Assembly: GCA_016209985.1 (NCBI GenBank)
Contig: JACQVB010000152.1
Coordinates: forward strand, 9,539 to 73,538
Source of the DNA: Gemmatimonadota bacterium
Lineage (GTDB): Bacteria; Gemmatimonadota; Gemmatimonadetes; Gemmatimonadales; GWC2-71-9
Length of the DNA stretch: 64,000 nucleotides
Direction of reading: 5' to 3'
Shown: piece after piece, positions 3,478 through 26,488 of the stretch
Layout: each line of letters starts with the position of its first letter
Numbering within the stretch: the first letter of the stretch is position 1
Translations under genes and position numbers: made by a program
Notes under the pieces: generated by a model
Database searches by the model: none
What the model saw: only the letters and a program-made list of their open reading frames with translations
What the model was told of the DNA's origin: nothing

Positions 3478-3479
3478 CC

Positions 3480-9824: not shown

Positions 9825-12497
9825 ATGCGTCAGATTCGTGCGCTGTATTGCGTCCTGGTGGTCGGGCTGGTCGGGTCGCCGGTGATGGCTCAGGGCCCGC
9901 CGCCGGGCCTTCGCCCGGCCAGGGGCTCCGAAGCGGCTCTAGACAAGAGCTCCCTGATTTCGGCTCTCGTGGGTTCTGCCCCGCACATCGATGGCGAGCT
10001 GAACGATTCCGCCTGGATGCACGTCCCCCCGATCTCCGACTTCGTGCAGAAAGAGCCGGATGAGGGTGGTGCTCCCAGCGAGCGCACCGAAGTCCGCCTC
10101 GTCTACGGCGATGACGCGCTTTACGTCGCGGCCCGGATGTATCACCGGAATCCGGCGGCGATCCGGCGCGCCGTGACCCGACGTGAGGGTGATAGCGACG
10201 CCGAAGTTCTGGACGTCTCTCTCGAAACCTACCTCGACCGGCGCACCGCCTACAGTTTTGCGCTCTCCTCGGGTGGCGTCCGGAAGGACTACTACCACGC
10301 GCAGGATTCCGAGGACGGTGCAGAGCTGACCTTCGATCCGGTATGGCAAGGGCGCAGTCGGGTAGACTCGCTGGGGTGGACGGCCGAGATGCGGATTCCA
10401 TTCTCGCAACTGCGGTTCACCGCCAAGCCGGAACAGGTCTGGGGTCTCCAGATCAAACGGGCGGTGCCGGACAAACATGAGACGGATTACTGGGTGTTGA
10501 TTCCGCGGGCGGCCACCGGATTCCCCTCTCATTTTGGTTTGCTGCGAGGGATCTCCGGCATCCGGCCAGCGCGGCGGCTCGAACTGCTGCCCTACACGGC
10601 GGGTGAAATGACCCTCCGGGCAAACCCGGATCCCGCCGACCCGTTTAACAGCAAGACCGGCGGGCGGGCGGGCGCCGACCTGAAGATGGGATTGGGCCCC
10701 AACCTCACGCTCGACGCGACGGTCAACCCCGATTTCGGTCAGGTGGAGGCCGACCCGGCCGAAGTGAACCTTACCGCCTTCGAGACGGTGTTCGACGAGC
10801 GCCGCCCGTTCTTCATCGAGGGCAACGAGCTGCTACGAGGTCGAGGACTCAATTTCCTGGGTCGCCCGACCTATTTCTACTCGCGCCGCATCGGGGCACC
10901 ACCGCACGTGGGCGCCGCCGGGGACTTCGTTCGCAGTCCCCTCAACACCACAATCGTCGGCGCCACCAAGGTGACCGGACGTCTCGCGTCGGGCCTCTCG
11001 GTCGGCGCCATGGGAGCGGTGACCCCGCGCGAGTGGGCCCGCACCTACTCGGTGACCTCCGGCGCTTTTGCCGACGTGCCGGTCGAGCCGCCGGCTGGCT
11101 TCGGCGTCATCCGGCTCCAACAGGAAGTCGGCCGTGAGAAGTCGACCCTCGGCTGGACGGTGACCGACGTGACCCGCTCGCTCAGCGGACCGGGAAGCCT
11201 GAATACGCTACTCGCGCGCCAGGCGAACACCGCGGGGACCGATTGGCGATTCCGGTTCAAGCAGGGGATGTACGAGTTCACCGGATACGCGGGCTACAGT
11301 CATATTGCGGGCGACGCCCCGGCCATCGCGCGGCTCCAGCGCACCAGCGCCCATTACTTCCAGCGACCCGACCAGACGCACGTTTCCTACGACCCGCAGC
11401 GCACCTCCCTGAGCGGCTATACCGCCGGCATCCGGGGTGACAAGAACGCGGGCCGCTGGACGGTTTGGGGCATTACGCTGAACACCCGCACGCCGGGTTT
11501 CGAGCTCAACGACCTGGGCCAGCTCCGCCGGGGAGATGAGATCGGCTTCAGCGGCGACTTCCAGCTGCGGGACACCAAGCCACACAAGAAGCTTCGCTAT
11601 TGGCAGGTCGGTCACAATTGGGGGACCAACTGGAATTACGGCGGCACGCGGTTGGCCTGGAGATTCAGTCAGAACATCCAGCTGACTTTTCCGAATTTCT
11701 GGCGGTTTTCCTACCGCACGAGCCTGACCACCCGAGGGCTTTCGGATGAGCTCACCCGTGGTGGACCGCTCATGCAGACGGCCAAGGGTTGGAGCGGGCA
11801 GGCGTCGCTGCAGAACCAGAACCAGGCAACCTACTACTGGACCGGCACGTTTAACTGGGGAGTCGACGAGCTGGACGGCTGGAATTGGCAGCTCAGCGCC
11901 GGATTGACTCTCCGGCCCGCGCCACGGTGGCAGGCAACGATCAGTCCCCGATACATCCGTTCGGTCGACGCACGGCAGTATGTCGCCACTCGCACCGGCG
12001 GATCCGCCGCCACGTTCGGGAGTCGTTACATCTTCTCGTATATCGAGCGGAGCACGATCGCTGCGTCGCTCCGATTGAACTACGCCTTCACTCCTGATCT
12101 CACGCTGGAGGCATACGCCGAGCCTTTCGCGGCCAGCGGGCGGTTCTACGATTTTGGTGAGCTGAGCGCGCCGCGGAGCCGCGTGCTCCGCACCTACGGC
12201 CAGGCGGCCGGCACCACGATCACGCGCCAGCCCGACCGGTCGTACGTGGTAACCGACGGCGCCGGCACGCTCACCATCGCCAATCTTGACTTCGATCAGC
12301 TTTCGTTCCGGTCCAACTTCGTGCTGCGGTGGGAATGGGCTCGCGGAAGCACGCTGTTCTTCATCTGGCAGCGGAACCTGCGCTCGTCGACGGCGCTGGG
12401 GGAACTGGTGCGGCCCGGCTCTCTGTGGGACGCAACGACTGCGGCGGGTGACAACTTCGTCGCCGTCAAGCTGACGTACTGGATTGCAGCGAAATAG
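9825..12497 (+). CDS. CBM9-like / DUF5916 domain protein (paralog 1)
   Basis: Signal peptide MRQIRALYCVLVVGLVGSPVMAQ. N-terminal IDGELNDSAWMHVPPISDFVQKEPDEG (CBM9/DOMON-like). Central NPDFGQVEADPAEVNLTAFETVFDERRPFFIEG, typical of DUF5916. Colinear with 56162-58828. The track ORF starts at 9717. Confidence 0.75.
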   Translation: MRQIRALYCVLVVGLVGSPVMAQGPPPGLRPARGSEAALDKSSLISALVGSAPHIDGELNDSAWMHVPPISDFVQKEPDEGGAPSERTEVRLVYGDDALYVAARMYHRNPAAIRRAVTRREGDSDAEVLDVSLETYLDRRTAYSFALSSGGVRKDYYHAQDSEDGAELTFDPVWQGRSRVDSLGWTAEMRIPFSQLRFTAKPEQVWGLQIKRAVPDKHETDYWVLIPRAATGFPSHFGLLRGISGIRPARRLELLPYTAGEMTLRANPDPADPFNSKTGGRAGADLKMGLGPNLTLDATVNPDFGQVEADPAEVNLTAFETVFDERRPFFIEGNELLRGRGLNFLGRPTYFYSRRIGAPPHVGAAGDFVRSPLNTTIVGATKVTGRLASGLSVGAMGAVTPREWARTYSVTSGAFADVPVEPPAGFGVIRLQQEVGREKSTLGWTVTDVTRSLSGPGSLNTLLARQANTAGTDWRFRFKQGMYEFTGYAGYSHIAGDAPAIARLQRTSAHYFQRPDQTHVSYDPQRTSLSGYTAGIRGDKNAGRWTVWGITLNTRTPGFELNDLGQLRRGDEIGFSGDFQLRDTKPHKKLRYWQVGHNWGTNWNYGGTRLAWRFSQNIQLTFPNFWRFSYRTSLTTRGLSDELTRGGPLMQTAKGWSGQASLQNQNQATYYWTGTFNWGVDELDGWNWQLSAGLTLRPAPRWQATISPRYIRSVDARQYVATRTGGSAATFGSRYIFSYIERSTIAASLRLNYAFTPDLTLEAYAEPFAASGRFYDFGELSAPRSRVLRTYGQAAGTTITRQPDRSYVVTDGAGTLTIANLDFDQLSFRSNFVLRWEWARGSTLFFIWQRNLRSSTALGELVRPGSLWDATTAAGDNFVAVKLTYWIAAK

Positions 12498-12586: not shown

Positions 12587-14218
12587 ATGACGACTCCCCC
12601 TTCGAGCGGAGATCTGGCCGAGGCGCAGATCCACGAACGTCTCGCCAAGGCCCTGGGCGCCCAATATGAAGTCCGCGGCATGCTGGGCCGCGGCGGTTTT
12701 GCCGAGGTGTTTGAGGTCTGGGACAAGTCCCTCGAGCGGCGACTCGCGGTCAAGGTGCTCCGTCCCGATGTGGCCTGGACCTCCGGCATGCTGGCGCGCT
12801 TCAAGCAGGAAGCGAAAGCCGTCGCGCAGCTGGCGCATCCGAACATCCTGCCGATCCATTTCGTCGGTGAAGGCGAGGGCATCATCTACTACGCGATGCC
12901 CTACATCGAGGGCAAGTCCCTCGGCGATGTGCTTCGCACCGAGGGTCGCCTCACACCGGATCGCGCGCTCGCCATCGCGCGCTCCATCTTCGACGCCCTG
13001 GAACACGCCCACCAGAAGGGGCTGATTCACCGGGACATCAAGCCCGACAACATCATGATCGACCAGACCTCGGGCCGGCCCATGCTCGTGGATTTCGGGA
13101 TCGCCAAGCGGATGGAAGGTGGGAAGGGACTCACCCAGACCGGATTCGTCGTCGGTACGCCGCACTACATGAGCCCGGAGCAGGCGTTGGGGCAGGGTGA
13201 TCTCGACCCTCGCTCCGACATCTATGCCATGGGGGCGGTGCTGTTCCAGATGGTGACCGGCACCCCGCCGTTCGACGGCGATACGTCGCAGGAAATTGTG
13301 GCCCAGCACATCACCAAGCAGCCGCCGCTCGCCAGCGAGGTGGACGGGCACATCCCGCAGTGGCTTTCGGACGTGATCGTCCGCTGCATGGCAAAACGTC
13401 CGGCGGATCGGTTCGATAGCGCCCTTCATGCGTCGCAGGCGCTGACGGCCGGTCGGAAGTCAGGGCCCCAGCAGCCGGTGAGCGCTGAGCGGGTGGCACG
13501 CGCCGTGGACGACGAGCGCACCGCGGTGATACCGACGGCGGAGCGGCGGGCCTCGCGGCCGGTGGAGAAACCCTATGTTCCGCCCGATGCCTCGGGTGCC
13601 GCTCCGGCAAGGCGTTCGAAACTGCCGGCCGTGTTGGCCCTGATCGCCCTGCTCGCGCTGGCCGGCGCCGGGGCGTTCTTCTATCTGAATCGTGCTTCCG
13701 TGCTGGTCGAAAACCGCCTGGTGGAGCCGATCCAGCTAACCGCCGGCAGCGAGCGTCACACCATCGATGCGGGAGGCCAATTGACGTTCCCGCTCAAGGC
13801 CGGTGTTGGAGAGGTGAGATGGGTGCTGATCCGTCCCACCACGCCTCAGGGAATCGCCATGGGGCGGGAGATTGGCGGGACCCTGCCGACTGCGGGCCAG
13901 CGGGGCACGAGCCGGCTTACGGTGGACGGGATGTCGGTAGAGCCTCCCGCCTTTGCACCGCTCATCACCAATGAGACGAAGGGCTCGCTCGCCATCACGG
14001 TGAATGCCGGGTTGAGCGGGGCGACGTCATGCAACTGCTGGATACCCGCGGGGGCGACGCGCGCGCGGATCGGCTATTACCCGCTCTACCAGAACAGCAC
14101 GGTGCGCGCGGAGGACCAGTCGGGACGCGCGGCCGGCTTCGGCGATCTGGGCCCGGATGTGGACCAGACTACGGGATCGGTCGGGCTTCGATTTCAGGAG
14201 AAGGACTTCCGGAAGTAA
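12587..14218 (+). CDS. Serine/threonine protein kinase with single TM and unknown extracytoplasmic domain
   Basis: Hanks kinase motifs GRGGFAEV, AVKVL, HRDIKPDNIM, DFGIAK, GTPHYMSPEQ. TM LPAVLALIALLALAGAGAFFYL. About 190-aa C-terminal domain not recognised. Start taken at the ATG at 12587. Confidence 0.88.
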   Translation: MTTPPSSGDLAEAQIHERLAKALGAQYEVRGMLGRGGFAEVFEVWDKSLERRLAVKVLRPDVAWTSGMLARFKQEAKAVAQLAHPNILPIHFVGEGEGIIYYAMPYIEGKSLGDVLRTEGRLTPDRALAIARSIFDALEHAHQKGLIHRDIKPDNIMIDQTSGRPMLVDFGIAKRMEGGKGLTQTGFVVGTPHYMSPEQALGQGDLDPRSDIYAMGAVLFQMVTGTPPFDGDTSQEIVAQHITKQPPLASEVDGHIPQWLSDVIVRCMAKRPADRFDSALHASQALTAGRKSGPQQPVSAERVARAVDDERTAVIPTAERRASRPVEKPYVPPDASGAAPARRSKLPAVLALIALLALAGAGAFFYLNRASVLVENRLVEPIQLTAGSERHTIDAGGQLTFPLKAGVGEVRWVLIRPTTPQGIAMGREIGGTLPTAGQRGTSRLTVDGMSVEPPAFAPLITNETKGSLAITVNAGLSGATSCNCWIPAGATRARIGYYPLYQNSTVRAEDQSGRAAGFGDLGPDVDQTTGSVGLRFQEKDFRK

Positions 14219-14308
14219 GAAGTGAGAAGTGAGAAGTAAGAAGGAAGTGAGAAGTAAGAAGTAAGAAGGAGCTCGTCCTTCTCACTTCTCACTTCTCACT
14301 TCACTTCG
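14212..14308. repeat. Tandem-heptamer hairpin element (GAGAAGT family), full palindrome with unequal arms
   Basis: Left arm of about 8 units (gaagtaa gaagtga gaagtga gaagtaa gaaggaa gtgagaa gtaagaa gtaagaa gga). Loop gctcg. Right arm of about 5 units (tccttct cacttct cacttct cacttca cttc). Contains the stop codons of both convergent genes. Confidence 0.9.
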
Positions 14309-16425
14309 ACGATCTCCACTTTCTCGATCGTCGCCCCCTCCAGCACCGCGTCTACCACCTCCATCCCTTTGGCGACTTCCCCGATGATGGTGTAGTTGTG
14401 GTCCAGTCGGGGATTGTCGACCAGGTTCACGAAGATCTGTCCGTCACCGGTATCGCGTCCGCGGGTGGAAATCCCGACGGTTCCGCGCACATGGGCCTCG
14501 GCTGTGAGCTCGTCGCGCGTGAACGGCCCGTCGCCCCAGTACTCATTCGCTCCGGGGCTGCCGCCCTGGATTACGAAGTTGGGAACCACCCGATGGAACG
14601 TGAGGCCATCGAAGTATCCTGACCTGACCAGCCGGGCGAACCGCTCGACGTTGGTGGGTGCATCGAAGGGCCGCAGCGTCATCTCGAAGGACGCCCCGCC
14701 CCGCATGTGGAACACGGCGCGGGAGCGGGCGAGCTGGGCAATGCTGGCGAGCGCCGGCAGTGACGAATAGGGAAGGGCGTTCGGCGCTGCTTCCTGCGGG
14801 GTCCCGGTCCATTGGGAGAGCATGCGGGCGGTCTCGGTCGCGATCGCCGGGTCCCAATCGTAAAGGTAGACCTGGATCTGGGTACCCTGCTCCGGACCCC
14901 CGAGACTCCCGATCGTCCGAAGCAACGCCATCCGCGCGTCGCGCGAGGTCTCGCGGTTTTCCCCCGTGACCCGCAGCAGGGCCGCATTGAGCGCCGCCAG
15001 GGCCGGCGCCGGGTTCGACGTGCTGTCGAGCGCCCGGGCGGCGGTGATCTGTAGCTGGTAGTCCTTTCGACTCAACGCGGCGATATAGACCGAGTCGGCG
15101 GCGTGTCCCTCGAGCTGGGAAAGGCCACGAATCGCTGCCTCCCGGACATTGTCATTCGCATCGTAGGCCAGTTGAGTCAGAACGGCGTTCTCCTTCAGGA
15201 CGGTGGCCGCGCGCGCCGCGTAGACCCGCACCCACCATGTGGTGTGACCCACGAACGCCGGGAGGAGCGAGTCCGCGCGATCGGGCGCCACGTGCGCGAG
15301 CGAGACGACCGCGTGTGCGCTCTGGTGCCAGGATGGAGCCGGGTTGGCGCCGCGATCGACGAAAGCTGGTGTCAATAGTTTTGCGAAGGCCACGAGTCGA
15401 TCCACCGCTTGCTGCCGGTACTGGGCGTCGCAACCGCCTCCCAGCAGGTCGATGGCCAGGAGAACGACGTGGGGACTCTTGTCGTTCACCGCCTGGAGGA
15501 TCGGACCGCAACCGCCGGTCGCTTTGAGTCGCTGCCCGTAGACTCGGAGGGCGTCGTAGCGAACTAGCGGCGATTCGTCCCGTAAGGCGTTGGAGACCAG
15601 GCGGGCGCGGTCGGCTGCCGAATCCGGACCGCCGGCCGCCATCATGGCGAGGCGGCGAACCTGCGGATCGGCATCCGTGGCGGCCGACTGCATGATGCCC
15701 GGGTCCAGCATGCCGGTTGCGGTCAACGCACCGACGGCCAACCGGCGGACCCGTGCGACGCTGTCGGCTCGGGCGGGAGCGCCGCGACCGCGGCCGGAGA
15801 AGCGTGCAAGCTCCTTCAAGCGGGTAACCGTCTGAGCTCCCGGAGCCGAGGTTCGGCCCGGCGCCCGATAAAAAGCCTCATAGCCGCGCGCGGCGCCGAG
15901 CACGGCGGCAAGGCTGGTGTCGCTCGAGACCTCCAATAGAGCGGCCTCGATCGACGGCGAGCTCCGGTACGGAAGACGTCCCAGCGCTTCGGCGGTCGCC
16001 CCGCGGACCCGGGGGTCGCGCTCGTTCTTGAGGCGTGCCACCAGAGAATCCCGGGCCGGACCAGGATTCCCGTGCGAAACTGCCTGGGCCAGTGCATTGG
16101 CCGCCTCCGCGCGGACCGTGGCGCTGGAGTCGTGGAGTGCGAATGAGATCAGATCGGTGAGATAGAGAATGCCCCGATCCGACCGCATGCTGTCGCGCTC
16201 CAGCCGGCCCAGCCCGCGCACGGTAAGTCGCCGGATCTCGGGGTCCGGGTAGCGGAGCCCTCCGGCGAGTGGGCCAAGTGCCCGCGCCTGCGCCGGCCGC
16301 GAATCTTCGGCTGAGAGAATGGCCGACCACATGACGGCGTCGCGCGGTTGTATGGGTAATTGCGCGGATGCCGGCGCCGGGCAGAGGACGCCGGCCAGGA
16401 TCACCATTCGAAGTCGAATTGTCAT
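14296..16425 (-). CDS. Exported HEAT-repeat protein fused to a C-terminal cyclophilin-type peptidyl-prolyl isomerase
   Basis: Signal peptide ...APASAQ. About 520 aa of HEAT/ARM-like repeats (D..VR..A..AL). C-terminal FHRVVPNFVIQGGSPG...GTVGISTRGRDTGDGQIFVNL...HNYTIIGEV cyclophilin signature. Confidence 0.85.
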   Translation of the reverse strand: MTIRLRMVILAGVLCPAPASAQLPIQPRDAVMWSAILSAEDSRPAQARALGPLAGGLRYPDPEIRRLTVRGLGRLERDSMRSDRGILYLTDLISFALHDSSATVRAEAANALAQAVSHGNPGPARDSLVARLKNERDPRVRGATAEALGRLPYRSSPSIEAALLEVSSDTSLAAVLGAARGYEAFYRAPGRTSAPGAQTVTRLKELARFSGRGRGAPARADSVARVRRLAVGALTATGMLDPGIMQSAATDADPQVRRLAMMAAGGPDSAADRARLVSNALRDESPLVRYDALRVYGQRLKATGGCGPILQAVNDKSPHVVLLAIDLLGGGCDAQYRQQAVDRLVAFAKLLTPAFVDRGANPAPSWHQSAHAVVSLAHVAPDRADSLLPAFVGHTTWWVRVYAARAATVLKENAVLTQLAYDANDNVREAAIRGLSQLEGHAADSVYIAALSRKDYQLQITAARALDSTSNPAPALAALNAALLRVTGENRETSRDARMALLRTIGSLGGPEQGTQIQVYLYDWDPAIATETARMLSQWTGTPQEAAPNALPYSSLPALASIAQLARSRAVFHMRGGASFEMTLRPFDAPTNVERFARLVRSGYFDGLTFHRVVPNFVIQGGSPGANEYWGDGPFTRDELTAEAHVRGTVGISTRGRDTGDGQIFVNLVDNPRLDHNYTIIGEVAKGMEVVDAVLEGATIEKVEIVEVK

Positions 16426-16485
16426 GCCGGGATTATGCAGGGGCAGGTGGCCGCACGGGAGGCCTCAGGGGGTGAGTTTCCAGGC

Positions 16486-16524
16486 TTGACAAGAACTACT
16501 ACACATGTAATACTACGGTCGTAG
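16486..16524 (+). promoter_or_regulatory. Candidate promoter overlapped by BlaI/MecI-type operator dyads
   Basis: TTGACA (16486-16491), 16-nt spacer, TAATAC (16508-16513). Dyad TACA-CA-TGTA at 16500-16509, matching the TACA/TGTA BlaI/MecI operator core. A second dyad CTACG-GT-CGTAG at 16513-24. About 40 nt upstream of the blaI-like ATG. Confidence 0.55.
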
Positions 16525-16559
16525 ATTTCACCTTCGAAACCAGTTAACGAGGTGGTTGA

Positions 16560-16961
16560 ATGTCCGAGCTCCACCAACTGACGGAACTGCAAATCGCGGT
16601 CATGCGCGTGCTCTGGGACAAAGGAGAAGCCACCGTGGCGGAAATCTGGGAGGCGTTGCGCCCCGAGCGGGGACTCGCGCAGACCACCGTGGCCACGCTG
16701 CTCTCTCGCCTCGAGAAACGGGGCGTGGTCGCGCACAAGAGCCGCGCCCGCCAGTACCTCTATCGCGCCACGGTCACCGAATCCGACGTGCGGCGAGTGA
16801 TGGTTCGTGACCTGACCGAGCGCCTGTTCGATGGTGATGTAGCGGCACTGATGAGTCATCTATTGACCGGGCGCGAGGTGACACCCGGCGATCTGGCACG
16901 CGTAAAGAAACTGGTCGAGGCGAAGGAATCGGGTAAGGAGGTGGGTCGTGCTGAGAAGTGA
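16560..16961 (+). CDS. BlaI/MecI/CopY-family transcriptional repressor
   Basis: LTELQIAVMRVLWDKGEATVAEIWEAL...TTVATLLSRLEKRGVV winged-helix of the penicillinase-repressor family. No C-terminal CxC metal motif. RBS GAGGTGG. Overlaps the following M56 gene. Confidence 0.88.
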   Translation: MSELHQLTELQIAVMRVLWDKGEATVAEIWEALRPERGLAQTTVATLLSRLEKRGVVAHKSRARQYLYRATVTESDVRRVMVRDLTERLFDGDVAALMSHLLTGREVTPGDLARVKKLVEAKESGKEVGRAEK

Positions 16962-19173
16962 GACGTTGCTCGCCTGGCTGTTGACCTACGCCTTGCACAG
17001 TACCCTACTGCTGGGCATCGCATGGGTGCTGACTCGCCGCCTGGTGCAGCCCCATGGCGTGAGAGACCTCATCTGGAAGACCGCGTTGATCGGCGGCTTG
17101 GTTTCGTCATCGGTGCAGGTGATCGCGGGGATCGAGCCGGTTGGTGGCAGTTACGCGCTCGAGGCGGCAGCTGCAACCTCGCAGTCGACGGAGTTGCGAC
17201 CCGCCGACCCGCCGACCCGCCCGTCCGCGCTGCGACCCGCCGACCCGCCGACCCGCCTGTCCGCCCTGCGACCCGCCGACCCGCCGACCCGCCGATCTGG
17301 ACTGGTTCTCGCCCTGGCGGGATGGATCATCACCGCCCTCATCCTGGCCGCGCACCTCCTCACCGCGCAGTTCCTGCTCGTGGTGCGCGTCGGCAGGCGC
17401 GCGTTGGTACGGGACGCGCAGTTGGTTGAGCTGGTGGACTTGCTCCGGGAAGAAGCGGGCCTTCGCCACCATATTCGCCTGACGCGTGCGGAAGGCTTGC
17501 CGAGCCCCGTGGCGTTGGGCCTCTCCGAGATCTGCATTCCCGACGCCGCGCTGACCGAGCTGGACCGCGAACAGCAGGAAAGCATGCTGGCCCACGAGCT
17601 GGCGCATCTGGCGCGGCGTGATCCCGTGTGGCTGTTCGTGAGCTGTCTCATCGAGCGGATCTTCTTCTTCCAGCCGCTGAATCGCCTGGCGCGGCGCCGG
17701 ATCCAGGAATCGGCCGAATATCTGTGTGATGACTGGGCCGCGCGGCGCTCCGGCTCAGGTCTTACGCTGGCCAAGTGTCTCGTCAAAGTGGCAGAATGGA
17801 TCGACACGATGCCGGAGCCGGTGCCGGTGTCGGGAATGGCCGAAATGCGCTCCCATTTCGTGTCGCGCATTCATCGCTTGATCGCGAATCATGCCCTGGT
17901 TACCCAGCCCACCCGGCGCTGGCTGGTTCCGGCCGCCATGGGCGCGGTAGCGGTGATCGTGGCCGCCGCACCTGGGGTGACGGCAACGAGGACGGTCGGA
18001 CGGTCGGACGGTCGGACGGGCAGTGCGACATCTCAATCGATTTCCCCGGCGGCCATCGCTACCCGTACGGTCGAGAGCTCGGAAACGCGCCCCGCGACCA
18101 CAACCAACGTGGAATTCACCGTCCGACCGTCTGACCGTCCAACCGTCCAGCCGTCTGACCGTCTGACCGTCGATGCTCCGCCGATGACGCTGGCTCAGAT
18201 CCGGCAGGGACGCGACACGGCCGCGATAACGGCCTTGATGGCGGCACTGAAGGACGAGGATGTGGAGGTCCGTCGGGCGGCCGCCCGGGCGCTGGGCAAC
18301 CGGCGCGATCCGCGGGCCGTACCGGCGCTGATGGCGGCGCTGGGTGACAGCGACGCCGAAGTGCGCGCGAAAGTGGTGGAAGCCCTCGCCGGCCTGCGCG
18401 ACGCGCGGGCGACCGACGGTCTGGTGCGCGCGCTCAAGGACGAGAACGCCGAGGTCCGCGCCCATGCGGCCGAGGCCTTGGGAGAGCTGCCCGATACCCG
18501 GCGCGGCTATTCCGCGGAGGCGCAGCGAGTCATCGCCGCGCTGGCGAGCCTGATGAGCGACGTTTCGGCTGAGGTGCGGAAGGAAGCGATTCAGGCGTTG
18601 CGGGAGGTGAAGGGCGCCCGCCTGACCGACCCGCTGATCACCGCGCTCAAGGATGCCGATGCCGATGTGCGGCAATCAGCCGCGGAGGCGCTCGGCGCGG
18701 CGGAAGCGCGCGGGGCGGTACAGCCGCTGATCGCCGCGCTCTCGGATCCCGCCGCCGACGTGCGTCACGCCGCCGCGCACGCGCTGGGCCATCTCCGGGA
18801 CCCGCAGGCAACCGAACCGCTCACCCGGTTGCTCAAGGACCCCAACGCCGAAGTCCGCCAGGCGGCGGCCGAATCGCTGGGCGAGCTGGAGTTGCCCCAG
18901 GCTCCAGCCGCACTGCTCGAGGCGATGCACGACCAGAGCGCGGAGGTCCGTCACCAGGCGGTTCAGGCGGTCGGCAACATCCGGGACCCCAGGGCGGTGC
19001 CGGCCCTCGCCGGTTTGCTCAACGATCCTGACCCGGATGTCCGTGAAATGGCGATCGAGGCATTGAGCAATATCCGCGACGCGGCGGCCATCGACGCGCT
19101 GGTGTCGGCCCTGCAGTCCAAAGACCCCAATGTGCGCAAACGCGCCGCCGAAGCCCTCGGCGAGCGGAACTGA
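16948..19173 (+). CDS. BlaR1-like M56 family membrane metalloprotease fused to C-terminal HEAT (PBS-lyase type) repeats
   Basis: GTG start overlaps the blaI stop. N-terminal TM helices, HELAHLARRD (HEXXH) and a further TM (WLVPAAMGAVAVIVAAAP). Then a low-complexity linker and about ten repeats of D.DVR..AA.ALG...D.RA...L. Confidence 0.85.
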   Translation: MLRSETLLAWLLTYALHSTLLLGIAWVLTRRLVQPHGVRDLIWKTALIGGLVSSSVQVIAGIEPVGGSYALEAAAATSQSTELRPADPPTRPSALRPADPPTRLSALRPADPPTRRSGLVLALAGWIITALILAAHLLTAQFLLVVRVGRRALVRDAQLVELVDLLREEAGLRHHIRLTRAEGLPSPVALGLSEICIPDAALTELDREQQESMLAHELAHLARRDPVWLFVSCLIERIFFFQPLNRLARRRIQESAEYLCDDWAARRSGSGLTLAKCLVKVAEWIDTMPEPVPVSGMAEMRSHFVSRIHRLIANHALVTQPTRRWLVPAAMGAVAVIVAAAPGVTATRTVGRSDGRTGSATSQSISPAAIATRTVESSETRPATTTNVEFTVRPSDRPTVQPSDRLTVDAPPMTLAQIRQGRDTAAITALMAALKDEDVEVRRAAARALGNRRDPRAVPALMAALGDSDAEVRAKVVEALAGLRDARATDGLVRALKDENAEVRAHAAEALGELPDTRRGYSAEAQRVIAALASLMSDVSAEVRKEAIQALREVKGARLTDPLITALKDADADVRQSAAEALGAAEARGAVQPLIAALSDPAADVRHAAAHALGHLRDPQATEPLTRLLKDPNAEVRQAAAESLGELELPQAPAALLEAMHDQSAEVRHQAVQAVGNIRDPRAVPALAGLLNDPDPDVREMAIEALSNIRDAAAIDALVSALQSKDPNVRKRAAEALGERN
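17194..17301. repeat. 3 x 36-nt in-frame tandem repeat inside the BlaR1-like CDS, each unit containing a CGACCCGC octamer triplet
   Basis: (t/c)tgcgacccgccgacccgccgacccgcc... repeated at 17194, 17230 and 17266. Encodes LRPADPPTRPSA / LRPADPPTRLSA / LRPADPPTRRSG. Confidence 0.9.
17989..18172. repeat. Octamer-array inverted repeat (GGACGGTC family) embedded in frame in the BlaR1-like CDS
   Basis: Left arm gaggacggtcggacggtcggacggtcggacgggcag (17989-18024). Right arm caccgtccgaccgtctgaccgtccaaccgtccagccgtctgaccgtctgaccgtcg (18117-18172). The right arm shares aaccgtccagccgtc with the intergenic element at 4897-5024. Confidence 0.85.
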
Positions 19174-19182
19174 GGAGCGACC

Positions 19183-20655
19183 ATGCTGGGGAACTGGAAA
19201 CTCGCCGGCTTCATGCTGCTCGCCGGAGCCTTCGGCTCAACTGCCGTGCTGGCCGCGCGCCGGCCCGCTCCTTCGCTGCCCCTTCGCTTCGCTCAGGGCG
19301 GCGGCTCAGAGCAGGCTTACCCGCCGAGGACTGATAAGAACGGTCCCGATTCTGCTCGAGTGGCGCGATTCCTGGAAGGGCTGGGCGCCACCGACCCCGT
19401 CGTGTGCGAGATGGCGGTGGATAACCTGGGGAACGGCTGGGGATGGCACAGTCGCCGCGAACCGGTCGGCGTGCTCCGGGACCGCCGCGACGCCGACCGA
19501 GAAGCGCGCAACGCATTCTCGCGCCCGGTCGATGATCCCAAGGCGCTGCCGCTCCTGGTCGACCGGCTGGCGGATCCCAACCCCTGCGTCCGCCGCGCCG
19601 CCGCCCGCATGCTGGGTGCACACCGCAGCGAGATGGCGCGACGGATGCTTCGCGCCAAGCTGCGGGACCCGCAGCCGCAGGTTCGCGAAGCCGCCGCACT
19701 CGGAGTGGGGGAGAGGGAAGACCCGCAAGCATACGACGACCTGCTCCGCGGCTTGCGCGATGCCGATCTCTACGTCGTGCGGATGTCGACGTGGGCGCTG
19801 GGCGAGCTGGAAGACCGCCGCGCCCTCACCGCGCTGGCTGCCCTCCTCGAGAACGCCGACGCGGGTGTGCGGGCCGCCGCGGTGTGGGCGCTGGGAAATC
19901 TGGAGGATGCCAGAGCCGTGCCCGGCCTGATCCAGCGGTTGCAGGATCGTAGCCCCGGCGTGCGCGAGCTGGCGGCGATGGCCCTGGGTGACATCGAGAG
20001 CAAATCTGCCACCCCGGCGTTGATCGACGCGCTGGACGATCAGGATCTGGGCGTGCGGCGCGCCGTGGTGCATGCTCTGGCGGATATCGAAGATCCCAAG
20101 TCGGCGACCGCCCTTGCCGGCCTGTTGCAGGCGAGTGATGCCGGGTTACGCATGGAGGCAGCGCATGCGTTGGGTGAGATCGAGGATCCGCGCTCCGTCT
20201 CCGCATTGAGCCGCGCGCTCAAGGACGAGGACCCCGCGGTTCGTGCGCAAGCCGCGTGGGCGCTCGGGGAAATCGAAGATGCGCGCTCCGCCCCGGCGCT
20301 GGCCCAGGCGGTGGCGGACTCCGATTTGGAAGTGAAAAAGAACGCGGTGCACGCGCTCGGTGAGCTGGACGATCTTCATCAGGCTCCGGCGAATCTCGTG
20401 AACGCGCTGGCGGACGCGAATCCAGAGATCCGGGCCATGGCGGCCGGGGCGCTGGGAGAGATCGGAGATCCCGCTACGGCACCGGCGCTCGGCCGCGCGC
20501 TCCAGGATGAAGTTCCCGAGGTTCGTCGCGAGGCGATCAGAGCGCTGGGCGAGATGGAAGACGCATCGGTCACCTCCCTTCTGGTAGCGGCACTCAAGGA
20601 TTCGGATCCCGAAGTGCGGCGCGAGGCCGCCCAGGCGCTGGGAGATCGAAAGTAG
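19183..20655 (+). CDS. Exported HEAT-repeat (PBS-lyase type) protein
   Basis: Signal peptide MLGNWKLAGFMLLAGAFGSTAVLAA. The remainder is a nearly uninterrupted 31-aa-period repeat (D.D..VR..A..ALGEIED.R....L). RBS GAGGAG. Starts 10 nt after the M56-HEAT gene. Confidence 0.85.
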   Translation: MLGNWKLAGFMLLAGAFGSTAVLAARRPAPSLPLRFAQGGGSEQAYPPRTDKNGPDSARVARFLEGLGATDPVVCEMAVDNLGNGWGWHSRREPVGVLRDRRDADREARNAFSRPVDDPKALPLLVDRLADPNPCVRRAAARMLGAHRSEMARRMLRAKLRDPQPQVREAAALGVGEREDPQAYDDLLRGLRDADLYVVRMSTWALGELEDRRALTALAALLENADAGVRAAAVWALGNLEDARAVPGLIQRLQDRSPGVRELAAMALGDIESKSATPALIDALDDQDLGVRRAVVHALADIEDPKSATALAGLLQASDAGLRMEAAHALGEIEDPRSVSALSRALKDEDPAVRAQAAWALGEIEDARSAPALAQAVADSDLEVKKNAVHALGELDDLHQAPANLVNALADANPEIRAMAAGALGEIGDPATAPALGRALQDEVPEVRREAIRALGEMEDASVTSLLVAALKDSDPEVRREAAQALGDRK

Positions 20656-20666
20656 AGGCTTGAAGT

Positions 20667-22844
20667 TTGACGGAGACACGCCGATGTTGCGGCGTGCGCA
20701 AACGTTTTGCCATCGTCGCCCTCTTCCTTGGGGCGACTTTCGCTCCCGGTGGACCACCGCGATCGTGGAACGGTCCCTCGCTTGCCGATACGACGAGTTT
20801 CTGCGCTCGCGCGCCGGCACCCGCTGATCCCGCGCACGACATCTACTGTCTCGAGCTGATCCCGCGCCCCGACATCCGCGAGGCCACCGGCGTGGTGGAG
20901 CTGCGGCGCCCTCCCTCTCCGTTTGACGTCGCCGTCTCAGTGGAAGGACATCAGCTCTACGACCTGGTAATGACCCTGCAGGGTCTTCCCGACCCCCATT
21001 CGCTGGGGGCGTATGCGACCTATGTGGCGTGGCTCGGACCGCCCAGCCTGTACCCGATGAAGAACCTCGGCGAGGTGCGGAATGGCCGGGTCGAGCTGGG
21101 ACGGGTGGCTCTGGAAAAGTTCATCGTCATGGTGTCAGCCGAATCGTCCGCGACGGTCTCTGAGCGCACCGGGCGACTCGTATTGCGGGGCAACTCACCC
21201 AGCACCCGCATGCAGCGGCACGACGTCCTGATGCTTCCCGGCGGGCCCGGCACGCATTCCATAGAGGCGATGCGCGGCTGGCCCATGCCCCCGATGGACA
21301 CGACGATTCCGATGTACATGCCGGGCATTGAAGCGCTGGTTCCGACCGCGACGCCACTGCTGCCGGTGGCGCCGGGCGGCGCGGTGGTTCCCGAAGCTCG
21401 GCCGCGCACGCTGCTCCCTCTGGCGGATGGTGATACCCTGCGCCTCGAGGCGGGCCTCGTCCGCCGTACCATCAACGGGCAATCGCTGCTGATGTACGGG
21501 TTCAACGGCCAGTATCCCGGCCCGCTGCTCTCAGTCCGGCAGAATGCGACCGTCGTCGTGGACTTCGTCAACCATCTCGATCAGCCGACCGCCGTTCATT
21601 GGCACGGCGTTCGTCTCGAGAACCGGTTCGACGGCGCCGTGGGCGTAACCCAGGAGGCAGTGCCCGCTGGCGGAAGGTTCACCTACCGGGTGCATTTCCG
21701 CGACGCCGGGATCTACTGGTATCACTCGCACTTCCGGGAGGACCTGCAGCAGGACCTCGGCCTCTACGGCAATATGTTGGTCCGCTCGTCTCGCCCTGAC
21801 TACTTCGCGCCGGTAAACCGGGAAGAGACCCTCATGCTCGACGACTTGCTTCTGGGTGACGCCGGCCCGATGCCGTTCGGTGAGGAAACCCCGACCCACG
21901 CACTGATGGGCCGGTTCGGAAACGTTTTCCTTATTAATGGGGAGCCCCGCTACACCCTTGCGGTGGCGCGCGGCGAGGTGGTGCGGTTCTACGTGACGAA
22001 TGTGGCGAACACTCGCAGCTTCAACCTGTCCTTCGGCGGTGCGCCGATCAAGCTGGTCGCGGCGGACGCGGGGAAGTTCGAGCGCGAGTCATGGGTGGAG
22101 AGCGTGTCGATCGCTCCGGCGCAGCGCTACGTGGTGGAGGTGAAATTTCCCGCTACCGGCGACGTGCCGCTGGTGAACCAGGTGCAGGCCATCAACCATT
22201 CCTTCGGCTATTTCTTCCCGCAGTCCGACACGCTGGGGGTCGTCCACGTCGGGAGCCGGGCATTGGCTCGCGACCATAGTGCGGAATTCGCGCGCCTTCG
22301 CACCAACGCCGACGTCGCCGGCGAGATGTCGCGCTACCGCCGGTATTTTACCCGTCCTCTCGATCGCGAACTGGTTCTCACGCTCAAAGTGCACGAGCTG
22401 CCATTCGCGCTGGAGCAGCTTCTGCAAATCGAAACCGGATATTTCAGCCCGGTCGAGTGGAGCGGCACCATGCCCATGATGGACTGGCTCTCCACCGGCA
22501 AGCAGGCGGAATGGACCCTCCGCGATCCGGCGAGTGGCAAGGAGAACATGGCTATCGACTGGCGGTTCAGGGTCGGCGACGTGGTGAAGATCCGGCTGGT
22601 CAACGACCGGAACACGTTGCACGCCATGGCGCACCCGATACACCTTCACGGTCAGCGCTTTCTGGTGCTTTCCCAAAACGGCGTGCCCAACGACGATTTG
22701 GTGTGGAAGGACACGATCCTCGTGCCGGTGGGGTCGACCGCCGAGCTGCTGGTGGAGATGTCGAATCCGGGACGGTGGATGCTGCACTGCCACATCGCGG
22801 AACATTTGCAGGCCGGGATGATGGGAGTGTTCGAAGTGAATTAG
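20667..22844 (+). CDS. Multicopper oxidase with about 230-aa N-terminal extension
   Basis: Copper-ligand motifs HWHG, YWYHSH, HPIHLHG and HCHIAEHLQAGMMG. Start uncertain: TTG at 20667, or GTG at 20694 giving MRKRFAIVALFLGATF. Confidence 0.85.
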   Translation: MTETRRCCGVRKRFAIVALFLGATFAPGGPPRSWNGPSLADTTSFCARAPAPADPAHDIYCLELIPRPDIREATGVVELRRPPSPFDVAVSVEGHQLYDLVMTLQGLPDPHSLGAYATYVAWLGPPSLYPMKNLGEVRNGRVELGRVALEKFIVMVSAESSATVSERTGRLVLRGNSPSTRMQRHDVLMLPGGPGTHSIEAMRGWPMPPMDTTIPMYMPGIEALVPTATPLLPVAPGGAVVPEARPRTLLPLADGDTLRLEAGLVRRTINGQSLLMYGFNGQYPGPLLSVRQNATVVVDFVNHLDQPTAVHWHGVRLENRFDGAVGVTQEAVPAGGRFTYRVHFRDAGIYWYHSHFREDLQQDLGLYGNMLVRSSRPDYFAPVNREETLMLDDLLLGDAGPMPFGEETPTHALMGRFGNVFLINGEPRYTLAVARGEVVRFYVTNVANTRSFNLSFGGAPIKLVAADAGKFERESWVESVSIAPAQRYVVEVKFPATGDVPLVNQVQAINHSFGYFFPQSDTLGVVHVGSRALARDHSAEFARLRTNADVAGEMSRYRRYFTRPLDRELVLTLKVHELPFALEQLLQIETGYFSPVEWSGTMPMMDWLSTGKQAEWTLRDPASGKENMAIDWRFRVGDVVKIRLVNDRNTLHAMAHPIHLHGQRFLVLSQNGVPNDDLVWKDTILVPVGSTAELLVEMSNPGRWMLHCHIAEHLQAGMMGVFEVN

Positions 22845-22866
22845 CCATCAGCCGTCAGCCATCAGT
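22844..22866. repeat. Solo arm of heptamer array (CAGCCAT family)
   Basis: gccatcagccgtcagccatcag directly abutting the multicopper oxidase stop codon. Same unit as the left arm at 60493-60514. Confidence 0.7.
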
Positions 22867-22936
22867 AGTTGACAGGCAAGGTTCTTCTCGTAGTTCTAAG
22901 CGTCCACGATTGGCAAAGATTCTTCCCGGAGTCACC

Positions 22937-24349
22937 ATGAAAACAACGTCGTCGTTCTGCGCTGTTACGCTCGGCTTTGCGTCGTTGCTTTCCGCGCAGG
23001 CGCCCGCGCCGTTGACCTCTGCGCTGCAGCAGTTCGTCGCCGTGCCGGAGGCAGTCGTTGCCCTCACCCACGTCCGGGTGGTCGACGGCGATGGCGTGGC
23101 ACCGGTCGAGGACCAGACGGTCGTGATCGCGAATGGAAAGATCCAGGCGGTGGGCCGGTTCGGCTCGACGCAACCGCCGGCCGGCGCTCGAGTCATGGAT
23201 CTCAACGGCCATACCGTGATTCCGGGCATCGTCGGTCTGCACGACCACTCGTTCTACGGGGGCGGTGGCTGGCCGTACGCGTTCTCCGCGGTCGCGGTCC
23301 CGCGCCTGTATCTGGCATCCGGCGTCACCACGATCCGGACCACCGGCAGCCTGGCGCCCTATGATGAGCTCAACCTCTGGAAGGCGATCGAACGCGGCCA
23401 GTCCGTGGGCCCGAGAATGTTCATCACCGGGCCGTACCTGAACAGCGGCGTGCCCGGGCTCACCGCCATGGTGCGGGTCGATTCAGCGGAGGATGCCCGG
23501 CGGGTGGTGCGCTACTGGGCGGAAGAGGGCGTCACCTGGATCAAGGCGTACGCCAACATCAACCGCGCGGCACTCGGCGCGGCGATCGACGAGGCCCACA
23601 AGCACGGGGTCAAGGTCACCGCGCACCTCTGCTCCGTGGGCTTCCGCGAAGCGGTGGCGCTGGGCATCGATCAGCTCGAGCATGGCCTGCTCACCAACCT
23701 CGAGTATCACCCCAACAAGAAACCGGACGAGTGCCCCCGCGAGCCGATGGACTGGAGCAAGGTGGACGTCAATAGCCCGCAGGTGCAGCAGACCTTCAAG
23801 GACATGGTCTCGCACAATGTGGGAATGACTTCTACGCTGGCCGTTTACGAGATCTCGTACCCCAACCGTCCCCCTCTCGAGCAGCGCGTGCTGGATGCCA
23901 TGTACGAGGGCGCACGGACGAGCTACCTGACCAACCGCGCCAGGATACCGGCGAATCGGTCCGACGTCCCGCTCAAGAAGGCCATGGAGTACGATCTCGC
24001 GTTCGTCAAAGCGGGGGGGCTGCTCGCAGCAGGCGTCGATCCCACCGGCAACGGCGGCGCGCTTCCGGGCTACGGTGACCAGCGGAACTACGAGCTGCTG
24101 ATCGAGGCGGGCTTCACCCCGGTCCAGGCGATCCAGATACTGACGTCGAACGGCGCCAAGGTTCTGGGGAAATACGACGAGTTCGGCACGGTGACGGCGG
24201 GCAAGTCCGCCGATCTCGTCGTCATCAAGGGGAACCCGATCGCGACGCCCGCCGAGATGCGAAATGTCGTGTACGTCTTCAAGCAGGGCGTGGGTTACGA
24301 CTCGCCCAAGCTGATCGAGTCGGTCAAGGGACAGGTGGGACTGAAATGA
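22937..24349 (+). CDS. Secreted amidohydrolase-family protein (copy 1)
   Basis: ATG at 22937 (MKTTSSFCAVTLGFASLLSAQAP) rather than the track start at 22457, which overlaps the oxidase. VIPGIVGLHDHSF metal-binding HxH. KVTAHLCS, GIDQLEH and GVDPTGNG motifs of the metal-dependent hydrolase fold. Confidence 0.8.
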   Translation: MKTTSSFCAVTLGFASLLSAQAPAPLTSALQQFVAVPEAVVALTHVRVVDGDGVAPVEDQTVVIANGKIQAVGRFGSTQPPAGARVMDLNGHTVIPGIVGLHDHSFYGGGGWPYAFSAVAVPRLYLASGVTTIRTTGSLAPYDELNLWKAIERGQSVGPRMFITGPYLNSGVPGLTAMVRVDSAEDARRVVRYWAEEGVTWIKAYANINRAALGAAIDEAHKHGVKVTAHLCSVGFREAVALGIDQLEHGLLTNLEYHPNKKPDECPREPMDWSKVDVNSPQVQQTFKDMVSHNVGMTSTLAVYEISYPNRPPLEQRVLDAMYEGARTSYLTNRARIPANRSDVPLKKAMEYDLAFVKAGGLLAAGVDPTGNGGALPGYGDQRNYELLIEAGFTPVQAIQILTSNGAKVLGKYDEFGTVTAGKSADLVVIKGNPIATPAEMRNVVYVFKQGVGYDSPKLIESVKGQVGLK

Positions 24350-25812
24350 CGAGGGAAGAGGGAAGAGGGAAGAGGGAAGAGTGCATCCCCGTGGCCGCGC
24401 TTTTGTTGGCGGCGGCGACGGCAGCGAACCTGTACGCCCAGGGGCCTCAGCTTTCACCCGAGGTCCGACAGTACGTGAGTGTCGACACGCCGTTGGTTGC
24501 GATCACCCACGTGAAGCTGATCGATGGGACCGGCGCACCGGCTGCCCCCGATCAAACCGTGGTCATTGCCAACGGCAAGATCCAGGTGGTTGGTGCGGCG
24601 GCGACCGTGAAGCCGCCCGCCGGTGCCAGGGTCATGGATCTGACCGGCCACATGCTTATCCCGGGCCTTATCGGGATGCACGATCACACGTTCTATCTCA
24701 CGTACGGCGTCGAGCGGCCCATCCAGAGCAATTACAGTTACCCGCGGCTCTATCTGGGCAGCGGCGTGACGACCATCCGCACCACCGGCAGCATGAGTCC
24801 GTACGCCGAGATCAACATCAAGGCCGAGATCGATCGGGGTGATTCGCCCGGGCCCCACATGTATGTCACCGGCCCCTACATCATCGGTCCCAAGCCCGAT
24901 CCCCGCCTGGAACCGTTCGGCGCGCTGCGGGCTGCGACCCCCGAAGCAGCGCGGCGCGCAGTGGCGTATTGGGCCGAGGAGGGTGCTACCTGGATCAAGG
25001 TCTACGCGAGCATCAGTCGCGCTCAACTCGCGGCGGTAGTCGATGAAGCGCACCAGCACGGGATGAAGGTGACCGGGCATCTTTGCGCGGTGGGATATCG
25101 CGAGGCGGTGGCACTGGGCATCGACCACCTGGAGCACACCCTGTTCGCCAACTCCGAATACGATCCGCAGAAGCAGCCCGACGTCTGCCCACCGACGTAT
25201 CGCAGCGCGATGACGAATCTCGACATCGGGGGAGAACCGGTTCGGGCGACGTTCCGCGATCTCGTTTCCCGCGGTGTCGGAATGACGTCGACGCTGGCGG
25301 TCTACGAGTGCACCGTTCCCGGCCGGCCCACCCGGCACGCCCACGTACTCGAAGCGTTCTCGCCCGAAATGCAACGGGAGGATTCCGTCCGGTTCGCGAC
25401 GGTGTCTCAGGGCAAAGTAGCGTCCTACTGGCCTGCCGTCTTCAAGAAGACCATGGACTACGAGGTCGCGTTCGTGAAAGCGGGCGGGTTGTTGGTGGCC
25501 GGTGTGGATCCGGCGTGGTGCATCACGGCGGGCCGGGGCGACCAGCGGGAATTCGAGCTGCTGGTCGAGGCCGGGTTCACGCCGGTCCAGGCCGTGCAGA
25601 TCATGACCGCAAATGGGGCGAAGGTTCTGGGAATCCTTGACCGGGTGGGCACGGTGACGGCCGGCAAGAACGCCGATTTGGCGGTCATCCGCGGAGACCT
25701 TACCGCGCGCGCTGCCGATATCGAGAACGTGACGCTGGTGTTCAAGGACGGTGTGGGTTTTGATGCGGTGAGGCTGGTCGAGGCGGCGAAGGGGCAGGTG
25801 GGACTGAGATAG
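24346..25812 (+). CDS. Secreted amidohydrolase-family protein (copy 2, tandem paralog)
   Basis: Colinear with 22937-24349: LIPGLIGMHDHTF, KVTGHLCAVGYREAVALGIDHLEH, GVDPAW, TAGKNADLAVI. ATGA overlap with the upstream stop. Alternative GTG start about 45 nt downstream. Confidence 0.8.
   Translation: MTREEGRGKREECIPVAALLLAAATAANLYAQGPQLSPEVRQYVSVDTPLVAITHVKLIDGTGAPAAPDQTVVIANGKIQVVGAAATVKPPAGARVMDLTGHMLIPGLIGMHDHTFYLTYGVERPIQSNYSYPRLYLGSGVTTIRTTGSMSPYAEINIKAEIDRGDSPGPHMYVTGPYIIGPKPDPRLEPFGALRAATPEAARRAVAYWAEEGATWIKVYASISRAQLAAVVDEAHQHGMKVTGHLCAVGYREAVALGIDHLEHTLFANSEYDPQKQPDVCPPTYRSAMTNLDIGGEPVRATFRDLVSRGVGMTSTLAVYECTVPGRPTRHAHVLEAFSPEMQREDSVRFATVSQGKVASYWPAVFKKTMDYEVAFVKAGGLLVAGVDPAWCITAGRGDQREFELLVEAGFTPVQAVQIMTANGAKVLGILDRVGTVTAGKNADLAVIRGDLTARAADIENVTLVFKDGVGFDAVRLVEAAKGQVGLR
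24351..24382. repeat. Solo heptamer array (GAGGGAA x4.5)
   Basis: gagggaa gagggaa gagggaa gagggaa gag at the junction of the two amidohydrolase paralogs. Would encode residues 3-13 (REEGRGKREEC) of the second if the ATG at 24346 is used. Confidence 0.85.
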
Positions 25813-26456: not shown

Positions 26457-26488
26457 GAGGGAAGAGACCGGGACGCCGGCATCGGGAC

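Follow-up and report, generated by a model that had tools for sequence, protein, structure and literature searches.

The window analyzed here, 64,000 nt of contig JACQVB010000152.1 from a Gemmatimonadota bacterium, carries a three-gene cassette encoding a BlaI/MecI-type repressor (BlaI), a membrane protein in which an M56 metalloprotease is followed by HEAT repeats (M56-HEAT, hereafter the sensor), and an exported or membrane-anchored HEAT-repeat protein (sHEAT). Judged by comparison of related loci, this self-regulated trio is the conserved unit across Gemmatimonadota, and the adjoining genes for a multicopper oxidase (MCO) and for a HEAT-cyclophilin fusion are merely local neighbors. We consider it likely that the cassette is an autoregulated proteolytic switch of the BlaIR (M56) family, with an extracytoplasmic HEAT solenoid as input and sHEAT as an obligate exported paralog. 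BlaI/BlaR is the textbook case of signaling by regulated proteolysis of a repressor. A switch of this type, with an extracytoplasmic HEAT domain, had been proposed in an earlier sequence-only reading of the window, and invariant HEXXH and EXXXD motifs, an operator at the promoter and the predicted topology all argue for it. The same reading took the neighboring exported HEAT protein as a possible partner, which is borne out by its co-conservation with BlaI and M56-HEAT in essentially all of 82 related loci.

The window stems from a groundwater metagenome, and a run search found its sequence in four runs, all of DNA. Logan contigs confirmed the sequence and gave variant information limited to repeat-related joints. 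All five open reading frames (ORFs) are present at the coordinates listed in Table 1, with Pfam domain E-values far beyond chance, and organism-named homologs of all five proteins come nearly all from Gemmatimonadota metagenome-assembled genomes. The best-scoring 120 sensor homolog clusters each combine M56 and HEAT, at 38-69% identity and mostly near full length, and the clusters listed belong to Gemmatimonadota and Thermoanaerobaculia.

To collect related loci, a single genome for each GTDB species was scanned with an alignment restricted to the M56 part, which kept the HEAT repeats from driving the search. Of the resulting 224 relatives the best 80 were taken with 10-kb flanks, and two loci (L082 and L083) were added via protein identity, giving the 82 loci; the sample thus holds the closest relatives, with more distant variants represented only through L082 and L083. 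Locus ORFs were labeled by BLASTP against the window proteins and then clustered all against all. In essentially every locus the genes run BlaI, M56-HEAT, sHEAT on one strand. A strict automatic count found the full trio in 73 of 81 loci; of the eight that failed it, four are cut by contig ends and four have a long HEAT-labeled ORF overlapping the sensor, missed by the filter. The two added loci show the trio as well, one on a 4.6-Mb contig and the other with a 990-aa sensor that is 38% identical to that of the window. The repressor gene adjoins the sensor gene in every locus where the contig allows, at a distance of -25 to +37 nt (a 14-nt overlap in the window), and the commonest spacing from sensor to sHEAT is -4 nt, a 4-nt overlap. 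In the window sHEAT starts 9 nt past the sensor stop, where the sequence-only reading had counted 10. Clustering of the flanks revealed no further gene family common to more than 26 of the 81 loci; the flank genes encode rhodanese, DUF4442, nitronate monooxygenase, PALP enzymes and similar proteins. Conservation of the neighborhood, proposed earlier as a check on all of these genes, therefore holds for BlaI, M56-HEAT and sHEAT but not for the MCO, which lies beside the cassette in only 2 of 83 loci, the window included.

In three of the 80 loci (L022, L039 and L048) the sensor is split into separate, overlapping M56 and HEAT ORFs by a frameshift in the tether between the two parts. Among these junctions, when checked for simple repeats, only that of L048 has one, (CCAACA) x20. 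The split sensors could be assembly errors, or else genuine variation in length or phase.

The only promoter-like site in 12.5 kb (14000-26500) is TTGACA, a 17-nt spacer and AATACT, and its -10 element lies at the center of a 28-bp palindrome. The operator boxes, TACACATGTA (16500-16509) and TACGGTCGTA (16514-16523), are 10-bp palindromes placed 14 bp apart, and the tandem box is unique within the window, with 0.02 expected by chance. The motif TACANNTGTA is the known box of BlaI/MecI (PMC1935004) and the known box of CopY as well (PMC7253601). Boxes were found upstream of blaI in 77 of 78 loci, with a spacing of 14 bp in 51 loci and 15 bp in nine. The consensus over 60 box-aligned loci reads TTGAC-N7-ACTACRnnYGTAATATTACRnnYGTAGT, with TTGAC and TAATAT at constant positions relative to the boxes. 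A scan of 1.37 Mb of loci placed 142 of 147 boxes at blaI promoters, and the five outside them are at or below chance. This is strong comparative evidence that BlaI represses the cassette at its own promoter. Many loci (L013, L018-L027 and other Gemmatimonadales loci) also have a conserved TGAAACC motif about 20 nt upstream of the -35 element and CCGTC right before TTGAC, neither of which occurs in the window or in L001, the closest relative of the window; these motifs may mark either another site of regulation or the place where the upstream gene ends.

The repressor matches Penicillinase_R (PF03965) with 104 bits against a cut-off of 22.6 and aligns end to end, over 106-115 residues, with BlaI (1sd4) and MecI (1sd6) of Staphylococcus aureus, in agreement with its first assignment as a BlaI/MecI-type protein lacking the CopY CxC motif. 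Neither a CxC motif nor a Cys pair is present in any of 79 repressors (78 loci and the window), the window repressor has no Cys at all, and the score against the CopY family TIGR02698 is 78 bits, under the cut-off of 122. The CopY mode of metal sensing is thus excluded, and copper sensing by the repressor was rejected for want of a Cys; an evident ligand-binding or metal site is likewise absent. The segment ERLFDGDVAALVSHLL is largely conserved (at least 70-90%) among the 79 repressors, and the cleavage site of S. aureus BlaI/MecI, N101-F102 (PMC1935004), aligns with H100-L101 inside it. One cut in the C-terminal dimerization domain, in S. aureus BlaI at this site, inactivates repressors of the family.

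The sensor matches Peptidase_M56 (PF05569) over aa 123-309 with 75 bits, the cut-off being 31, and HEAT_2/HEAT_PBS repeats span its aa ~415-740. The overlap of its gene with that of the repressor and the intact HELAH had been read correctly from the sequence. H216, E217 and H220 of HEXXH and E257 and D261 of EXXXD are invariant in 44 aligned sequences, so that the degenerate HEXXH in orthologs which would have spoken against the proposal was not found. Both motifs have been used to define BlaR orthologs (bioRxiv 10.64898/2026.08.03.742534). FQPLN is also conserved among the sensor homologs.

Hydropathy gives four transmembrane (TM) segments in the sensor. Over 120 homologs the density of Lys plus Arg is 0.04 at the N-terminus, 0.22 in loop 1, 0.09 in loop 2, 0.18 after TM3 and 0.08 after TM4, and the median net charge of the HEAT domain is -10.5, which places the N-terminus outside, the protease inside and the HEAT domain outside, as in BlaR1. 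The predicted topology is thus one of four TM segments with a cytoplasmic protease between TM3 and TM4 and an extracytoplasmic HEAT solenoid. A cytoplasmic HEAT domain, the placement that the sequence-only reading had named as adverse to its proposal, was rejected on the Lys plus Arg density by loop (positive-inside rule), and the AlphaFold2 (AF2) model likewise puts the HEAT domain outside. In this model (predicted local distance difference test [pLDDT] score 82.6) four long hydrophobic helices accompany a confident protease domain, the outer loop L2 (aa 63-114) and aa 346-414 are disordered, and the solenoid consists of 20 helices, that is ten repeats, at pLDDT 94-98, in line with the roughly ten PBS-type repeats counted earlier.

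The sensor repeats are of the alphaRep/PBS-HEAT kind. Strong conservation in this domain is limited to scaffold Asp and Arg positions, with no conserved Cys, His or Met. HEAT repeats occupy the C-terminus, where a penicillin-binding sensor domain would be expected, and the match to NCBIfam blaR1_generic is 33 bits against a cut-off of 400. The sensor is therefore an atypical BlaR and not a beta-lactam sensor. A coil motif, PVSGMAExRS, is conserved at aa 288-303 (17809-17856) between two helices of the protease domain, with pLDDT below that of the flanking parts. This coil is a candidate loop for autocleavage or for occlusion of the active site, like the loop reported for BlaR1.

Octamer arrays lie inside the sensor gene (17195-17293, 17990-18019 and 18118-18171) and are confined to its two disordered outer segments. 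In L2, (CGACCCGC)n makes up a 36-bp unit present in 2.8 copies, and RPADPPTRxSAL is encoded there three times. The tether holds (GGACGGTC) x3.8 and its reverse complement (ACCGTCCG) x6.8, which could form a stem of about 29 bp (RNA fold z=-4.3). Because both arms recur around other short spacers in contigs of the same metagenomes, the tether arrays seem to be a dispersed inverted-array element lying in frame within the linker.

The third gene, sHEAT, had been described as encoding a signal peptide followed by HEAT repeats, and a hydrophobic, signal-like N-terminus and the repeats are indeed present. The N-terminal segment passes a hydropathy filter in 63 of 78 orthologs, and some N-termini resemble cleavable signal peptides (VLA-A in the window). 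Between this segment and the repeats lies an N-terminal module with the conserved positions GPDS, V60, P72, C75, GN.W, C135 and W204. C75 and C135 are 98% conserved in 63 sHEAT orthologs and retained in the distant L083, and forms as short as ~220 aa, as well as distant ones, still have the Cys-pair module. The two Cys may be joined in a periplasmic disulfide or act as a redox-sensitive pair, and their conservation fits an extracytoplasmic disulfide. A phmmer search with the module against 1.84 billion cluster representatives returned only 109 matches, almost all near the N-terminus, so the module is private to the sHEAT family. Across loci the protein ranges from ~220 to ~640 aa through varying numbers of C-terminal repeats. 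The HEAT repeats of the sensor and of sHEAT form two separate orthologous groups, each with its best match within its own class in another genome in 51 of 51 cases, which indicates that the duplication is old and that both copies have been maintained. A stretch of about 40 nt directly following the signal-like segment (window 19264-19318) reaches word depths of 350-2900x in metagenome contigs, whereas the sequence to each side is at ~10x; this stretch is common to other, very abundant sequences.

We propose that one or more BlaI dimers would bind the 28-bp palindrome, with its two TACRnnYGTA boxes over the -10 element, and repress blaI, M56-HEAT and sHEAT. The sensor would combine a cytoplasmic gluzincin domain with a periplasmic ten-repeat solenoid held by a disordered tether of about 70 aa, and changed binding at the solenoid would activate the protease, the likeliest binder being a protein or peptide ligand, or sHEAT itself. 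The protease would then cut BlaI in its conserved C-terminal dimerization segment and the operon would be derepressed, whereupon induced sHEAT would feed back by sequestering the ligand or re-binding the sensor. We infer the activation at the solenoid and the cleavage and derepression steps from knowledge of the family (PMC7593790, PMC13492132).

Several observations weigh against this reading. The box scan of the window and the loci (+/-10 kb) found no regulon members besides the cassette. At the aligned cleavage position the repressor has H-L instead of N-F. The direct sequence match of the sensor to BlaR1 (8exp/8exs), at aa 125-262, is weak (E=6e-4), and a Foldseek search of the PDB with the full sensor model yielded HEAT/ARM solenoids alone, the solenoid dominating all matches, so that it did not directly show the M56 part to resemble BlaR1 in structure. 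In many sHEAT N-termini no AXA cleavage site is obvious, and these may anchor the protein in the membrane. Finally, with a long disordered tether from TM4 to the solenoid it is difficult to explain how binding could be relayed to the protease; the sensor domain of BlaR1 lies near the membrane. For any allosteric model this tether is the chief difficulty, and it suggests control through docking of a partner, through clustering or through proteolysis outside the membrane, not a rigid conformational relay.

sHEAT may act as a periplasmic co-sensor or feedback inhibitor on the sensor solenoid, much as CpxP acts on CpxA, its state (free or bound, or with the Cys pair oxidized or reduced) being what is sensed. 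The strict gene pairing and translational coupling of sensor and sHEAT agree with this, as do the family-restricted module, whose two ~98% conserved Cys persist in short and distant forms, and a sensor solenoid in which the strongly conserved positions are scaffold residues only. We hold this view tentatively, as a serious possibility: the likeness to CpxP is one of analogy and not of homology, and the C75-C135 disulfide is putative.

Alternatively, sHEAT may be the effector, the sensor solenoid and sHEAT binding one periplasmic ligand (e.g., a protein or peptide toxin) that induced sHEAT would neutralize or sequester. This would mirror BlaR1, whose sensor domain looks like a class D beta-lactamase (PMC7593790) and where a beta-lactam-binding effector is induced. 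sHEAT occupies the effector-gene position of bla/mec loci and is the only non-regulatory gene always present, and repeats of the alphaRep/PBS-HEAT type make protein-binding surfaces. The effector role is possible but doubtful, since sensor HEAT and sHEAT diverged anciently into separate orthologous groups, the sensor has no counterpart of the N-terminal Cys-containing module, and the widely varying repeat number of sHEAT is odd for a specific binder. Within the proposed switch, a docking feedback partner and an induced binder of a shared ligand are about equally probable roles for sHEAT.

A bolder proposal, which we regard as rather unlikely as it stands, is that the sensor reads not a small molecule but the state of its own secreted paralog: the Cys-pair module of sHEAT would dock on the tethered solenoid, and lost docking would activate the protease. 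Docking could be lost through titration of sHEAT by a periplasmic protein ligand or through a reduced or unformed disulfide. If true, a BlaR-type protease would for the first time be seen to be gated by a partner protein, and Gemmatimonadota would have, across the phylum, a periplasmic pathway that senses proteins or redox state.

The cassette resembles BlaR1/BlaI and MecR1/MecI of S. aureus and Bacillus licheniformis in having the repressor gene first, coupled to a four-TM M56 metalloprotease with HEXXH and EXXXD between TM3 and TM4 and a C-terminal domain after TM4, and in being an autoregulated operon with a TACANNTGTA-type operator, here by its sequence footprint. It differs in that a ten-repeat HEAT solenoid on a tether replaces the penicillin-binding (transpeptidase-like) sensor, that an exported HEAT paralog is the constant third gene with no beta-lactamase or penicillin-binding protein gene, and that the host is of Gram-negative type (Gemmatimonadota), with the altered residues at the aligned BlaI cleavage position noted above. 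In the atypical BlaIR systems, CenIR of Clostridioides difficile (PMC13492132), PvmSR of Pseudomonas aeruginosa (bioRxiv 10.64898/2026.08.03.742534) and BlaIR of Mycobacterium tuberculosis and M. abscessus, the C-terminal regions are short, disordered or absent, unlike the large, well-folded repeat domain and the dedicated exported partner found here. With CopY/CopR the repressor shares the winged-helix family and the 10-bp box (PMC7253601), but it has no C-terminal CxCxxxxCxC, and an M56 protease partner is absent from CopY systems.

The 31-residue repeat consensus is close to that of alphaRep and PBS-lyase-type HEAT proteins (Mth187-like; CpcE/F, NblB, YibA), and alphaRep designs match at 36-40% identity with TM-scores of 0.87-0.88 (target-normalized) over stretches of four to six repeats. 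The likeness to phycobilin lyases and NblB is at the repeat level only, at 121-152 bits against NCBIfam equivalog cut-offs of 300-330; unlike theirs, the repeats here are predicted to be extracytoplasmic, and the locus has no bilin-related gene linked to it.

About 96% of M56 proteins are encoded within five genes of a BlaI (PMC13492132). Kurtz et al. (2026) counted 254 M56 architectures; only ~6% of M56 proteins have a penicillin-binding domain, and HEAT is missing among the architectures with at least 100 InterPro entries. Most M56 proteins lack a beta-lactam sensor, and not one of these has a known signal (PMC13492132). Literature searches turned up no publication about an M56-HEAT protein, in keeping with the earlier remark that no characterized HEAT-sensor BlaR1 was known. 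The M56 and HEAT domains are already named by automatic annotation; as a system, the cassette is an uncharacterized variant of the BlaI/BlaR1 switch, notable for its phylum-wide conservation, folded repeat sensor and obligate exported paralog. The large folded sensor domain, the obligate exported partner and the sharply defined operator and promoter make it a tractable entry to the questions of what non-beta-lactam BlaR proteins sense and how the signal crosses the membrane to the M56 domain. It also provides a case of alphaRep-type HEAT repeats used, by the predicted topology, extracytoplasmically.

Table 1. Features of the cassette and its immediate neighbors (window coordinates)
Feature	Coordinates	Strand	Basis
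Sigma-70-type promoter of the cassette (predicted): TTGACA, 17-nt spacer, AATACT (alternative TAATAC after 16 nt)	16486..16514	+	Promoter scan, locus alignment
Putative operator, 28-bp palindrome with two BlaI/CopY-type boxes	16498..16525	Strand-neutral	Box scan, locus alignment
BlaI/MecI-type winged-helix repressor, 133 aa, no Cys	16560..16961	+	Penicillinase_R E=6.9e-30
Sensor protease M56-HEAT, 741 aa	16948..19173	+	Pfam, conservation, Lys plus Arg density, AF2
Sensor TM1 (predicted)	16966-17034		
Sensor TM2 (predicted)	17074-17133		
Sensor outer loop L2 (predicted)	17134-17298		
Sensor TM3 (predicted)	17299-17376		
Sensor gluzincin domain (predicted cytoplasmic)	17377-17913		
HELAH, aa 216-220	17593-17607		
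EYLCD	17716-17730		
Sensor TM4 (predicted)	17914-17982		
Sensor disordered tether, ~70 aa (aa 346-414)	17983-18189		
Sensor ten-repeat HEAT solenoid	18190-19170		
sHEAT, exported or membrane-anchored HEAT-repeat partner, 490 aa	19183..20655	+	Pfam HEAT_2/HEAT_PBS, synteny
sHEAT signal or anchor segment	19183-19257		
sHEAT family-specific N-terminal module, variable HEAT repeats after it	19342-19617		
sHEAT C75	19405-19407		
sHEAT C135	19585-19587		
Three-domain MCO, 725 aa, neighbor outside the conserved cassette	20667..22844	+	Pfam, AF2, Foldseek
HEAT-repeat protein fused to a cyclophilin peptidyl-prolyl isomerase, 709 aa, exported, neighbor outside the cassette	14296..16425	-	Pfam

The MCO has Cu-oxidase_3, Cu-oxidase and Cu-oxidase_2 from aa ~257 on, and its copper motifs, HWHG, HSH, HPIHLH and HCHIAEH....M, are all invariant in 37 homologs. 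The sequence-only reading had reported these motifs together with an unrecognized N-terminal extension of about 230 aa; the motifs stand, and the N-terminal ~255 aa have no Pfam match, but the extension contains a conserved all-beta domain (20799-21206, aa 45-180; pLDDT ~95) with invariant C46 and C61. A Met/Pro-rich linker follows, and then a laccase/CueO-like core (21435-22841). The AF2 model (pLDDT 86.3) matched Thermus laccase (E=1e-39) and CueO in Foldseek, over the core only.

The MCO was earlier proposed as the output of the switch, which would make the cassette a copper/redox or envelope-stress system. It lies on the cassette strand 11-38 nt past sHEAT, depending on the start codon (TTG 20667, or GTG 20694, which gives the 716-aa form in the protein collection), with no promoter- or terminator-like site between, and the same order occurs in L001 ("bacterium HR33"), whose M56 part is 70% identical to that of the window. 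BlaI is also related to CopY, although the TIGR02698 score is below the cut-off. We nevertheless find this reading improbable. The adjacency is restricted to the window and L001, and the ~720-aa MCO with its extension belongs to a large Gemmatimonadota family that is abundant independently, at 57-77% identity and at least 90% query cover in nearly all matches. In locus L081 the MCO follows unrelated genes and is itself followed, past one gene, by an amidohydrolase pair as in the window, with no BlaI cassette, which indicates that the MCO is part of an MCO-amidohydrolase block that abuts the cassette by chance in the window lineage. Family BlaI proteins without a CxC or Cys pair and a sensor solenoid without conserved Cys, His or Met likewise offer nothing that ties the switch to copper. 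Since no terminator-like site occurs on the + strand after sHEAT before 25469, read-through from the cassette is possible; the MCO and the two amidohydrolases directly downstream of it in the window and L001 may be read through, outside the system, and such read-through is a local accident of gene order. For annotation, the adjacent copper oxidase should not be taken as regulon output.

That M56-HEAT is a membrane protease or scaffold with other substrates, BlaI answering to something else, would suit the atypical BlaR proteins, none of which has a known signal and some of which have no sensor domain (PMC13492132; bioRxiv 10.64898/2026.08.03.742534), but is very improbable given a sensor gene universally coupled to blaI, an invariant active site and a BlaI with no evident site for a ligand or metal.

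The divergent gene encodes, as first described, an exported HEAT-cyclophilin fusion, with a signal-like N-terminus, HEAT repeats and cyclophilin at aa 579-701 (14323-14691). Its suggested place in the system is not supported: the fusion (~700 aa) is widespread on its own, with at least 120 clusters of full-length homologs, and its gene is near the cassette only in the window and L001. In L001 another gene (3351-4040, minus strand), absent from the window, stands between it and blaI; the product, exported and 229 aa long, contains charged DRRE-type repeats and matches no Pfam family. PADLOC reported generic HEAT and winged-helix likeness only and recognized no defense system.

Inverted heptamer arrays, (GAAGTRA)n followed by (CTTCTCA)n, occupy 14212-14302 between the convergent kinase and HEAT-cyclophilin genes and are probably a hairpin that acts as a terminator in both directions. 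At 58999-59062 there is a similar array, of AGTAAGA. A DUF5916 protein of 926 aa is encoded 4 kb upstream of the cassette (9717-12497), with a paralog at 56162-58864, and a DUF5916 homolog directly follows sHEAT in three other loci (L030, L050 and L055).

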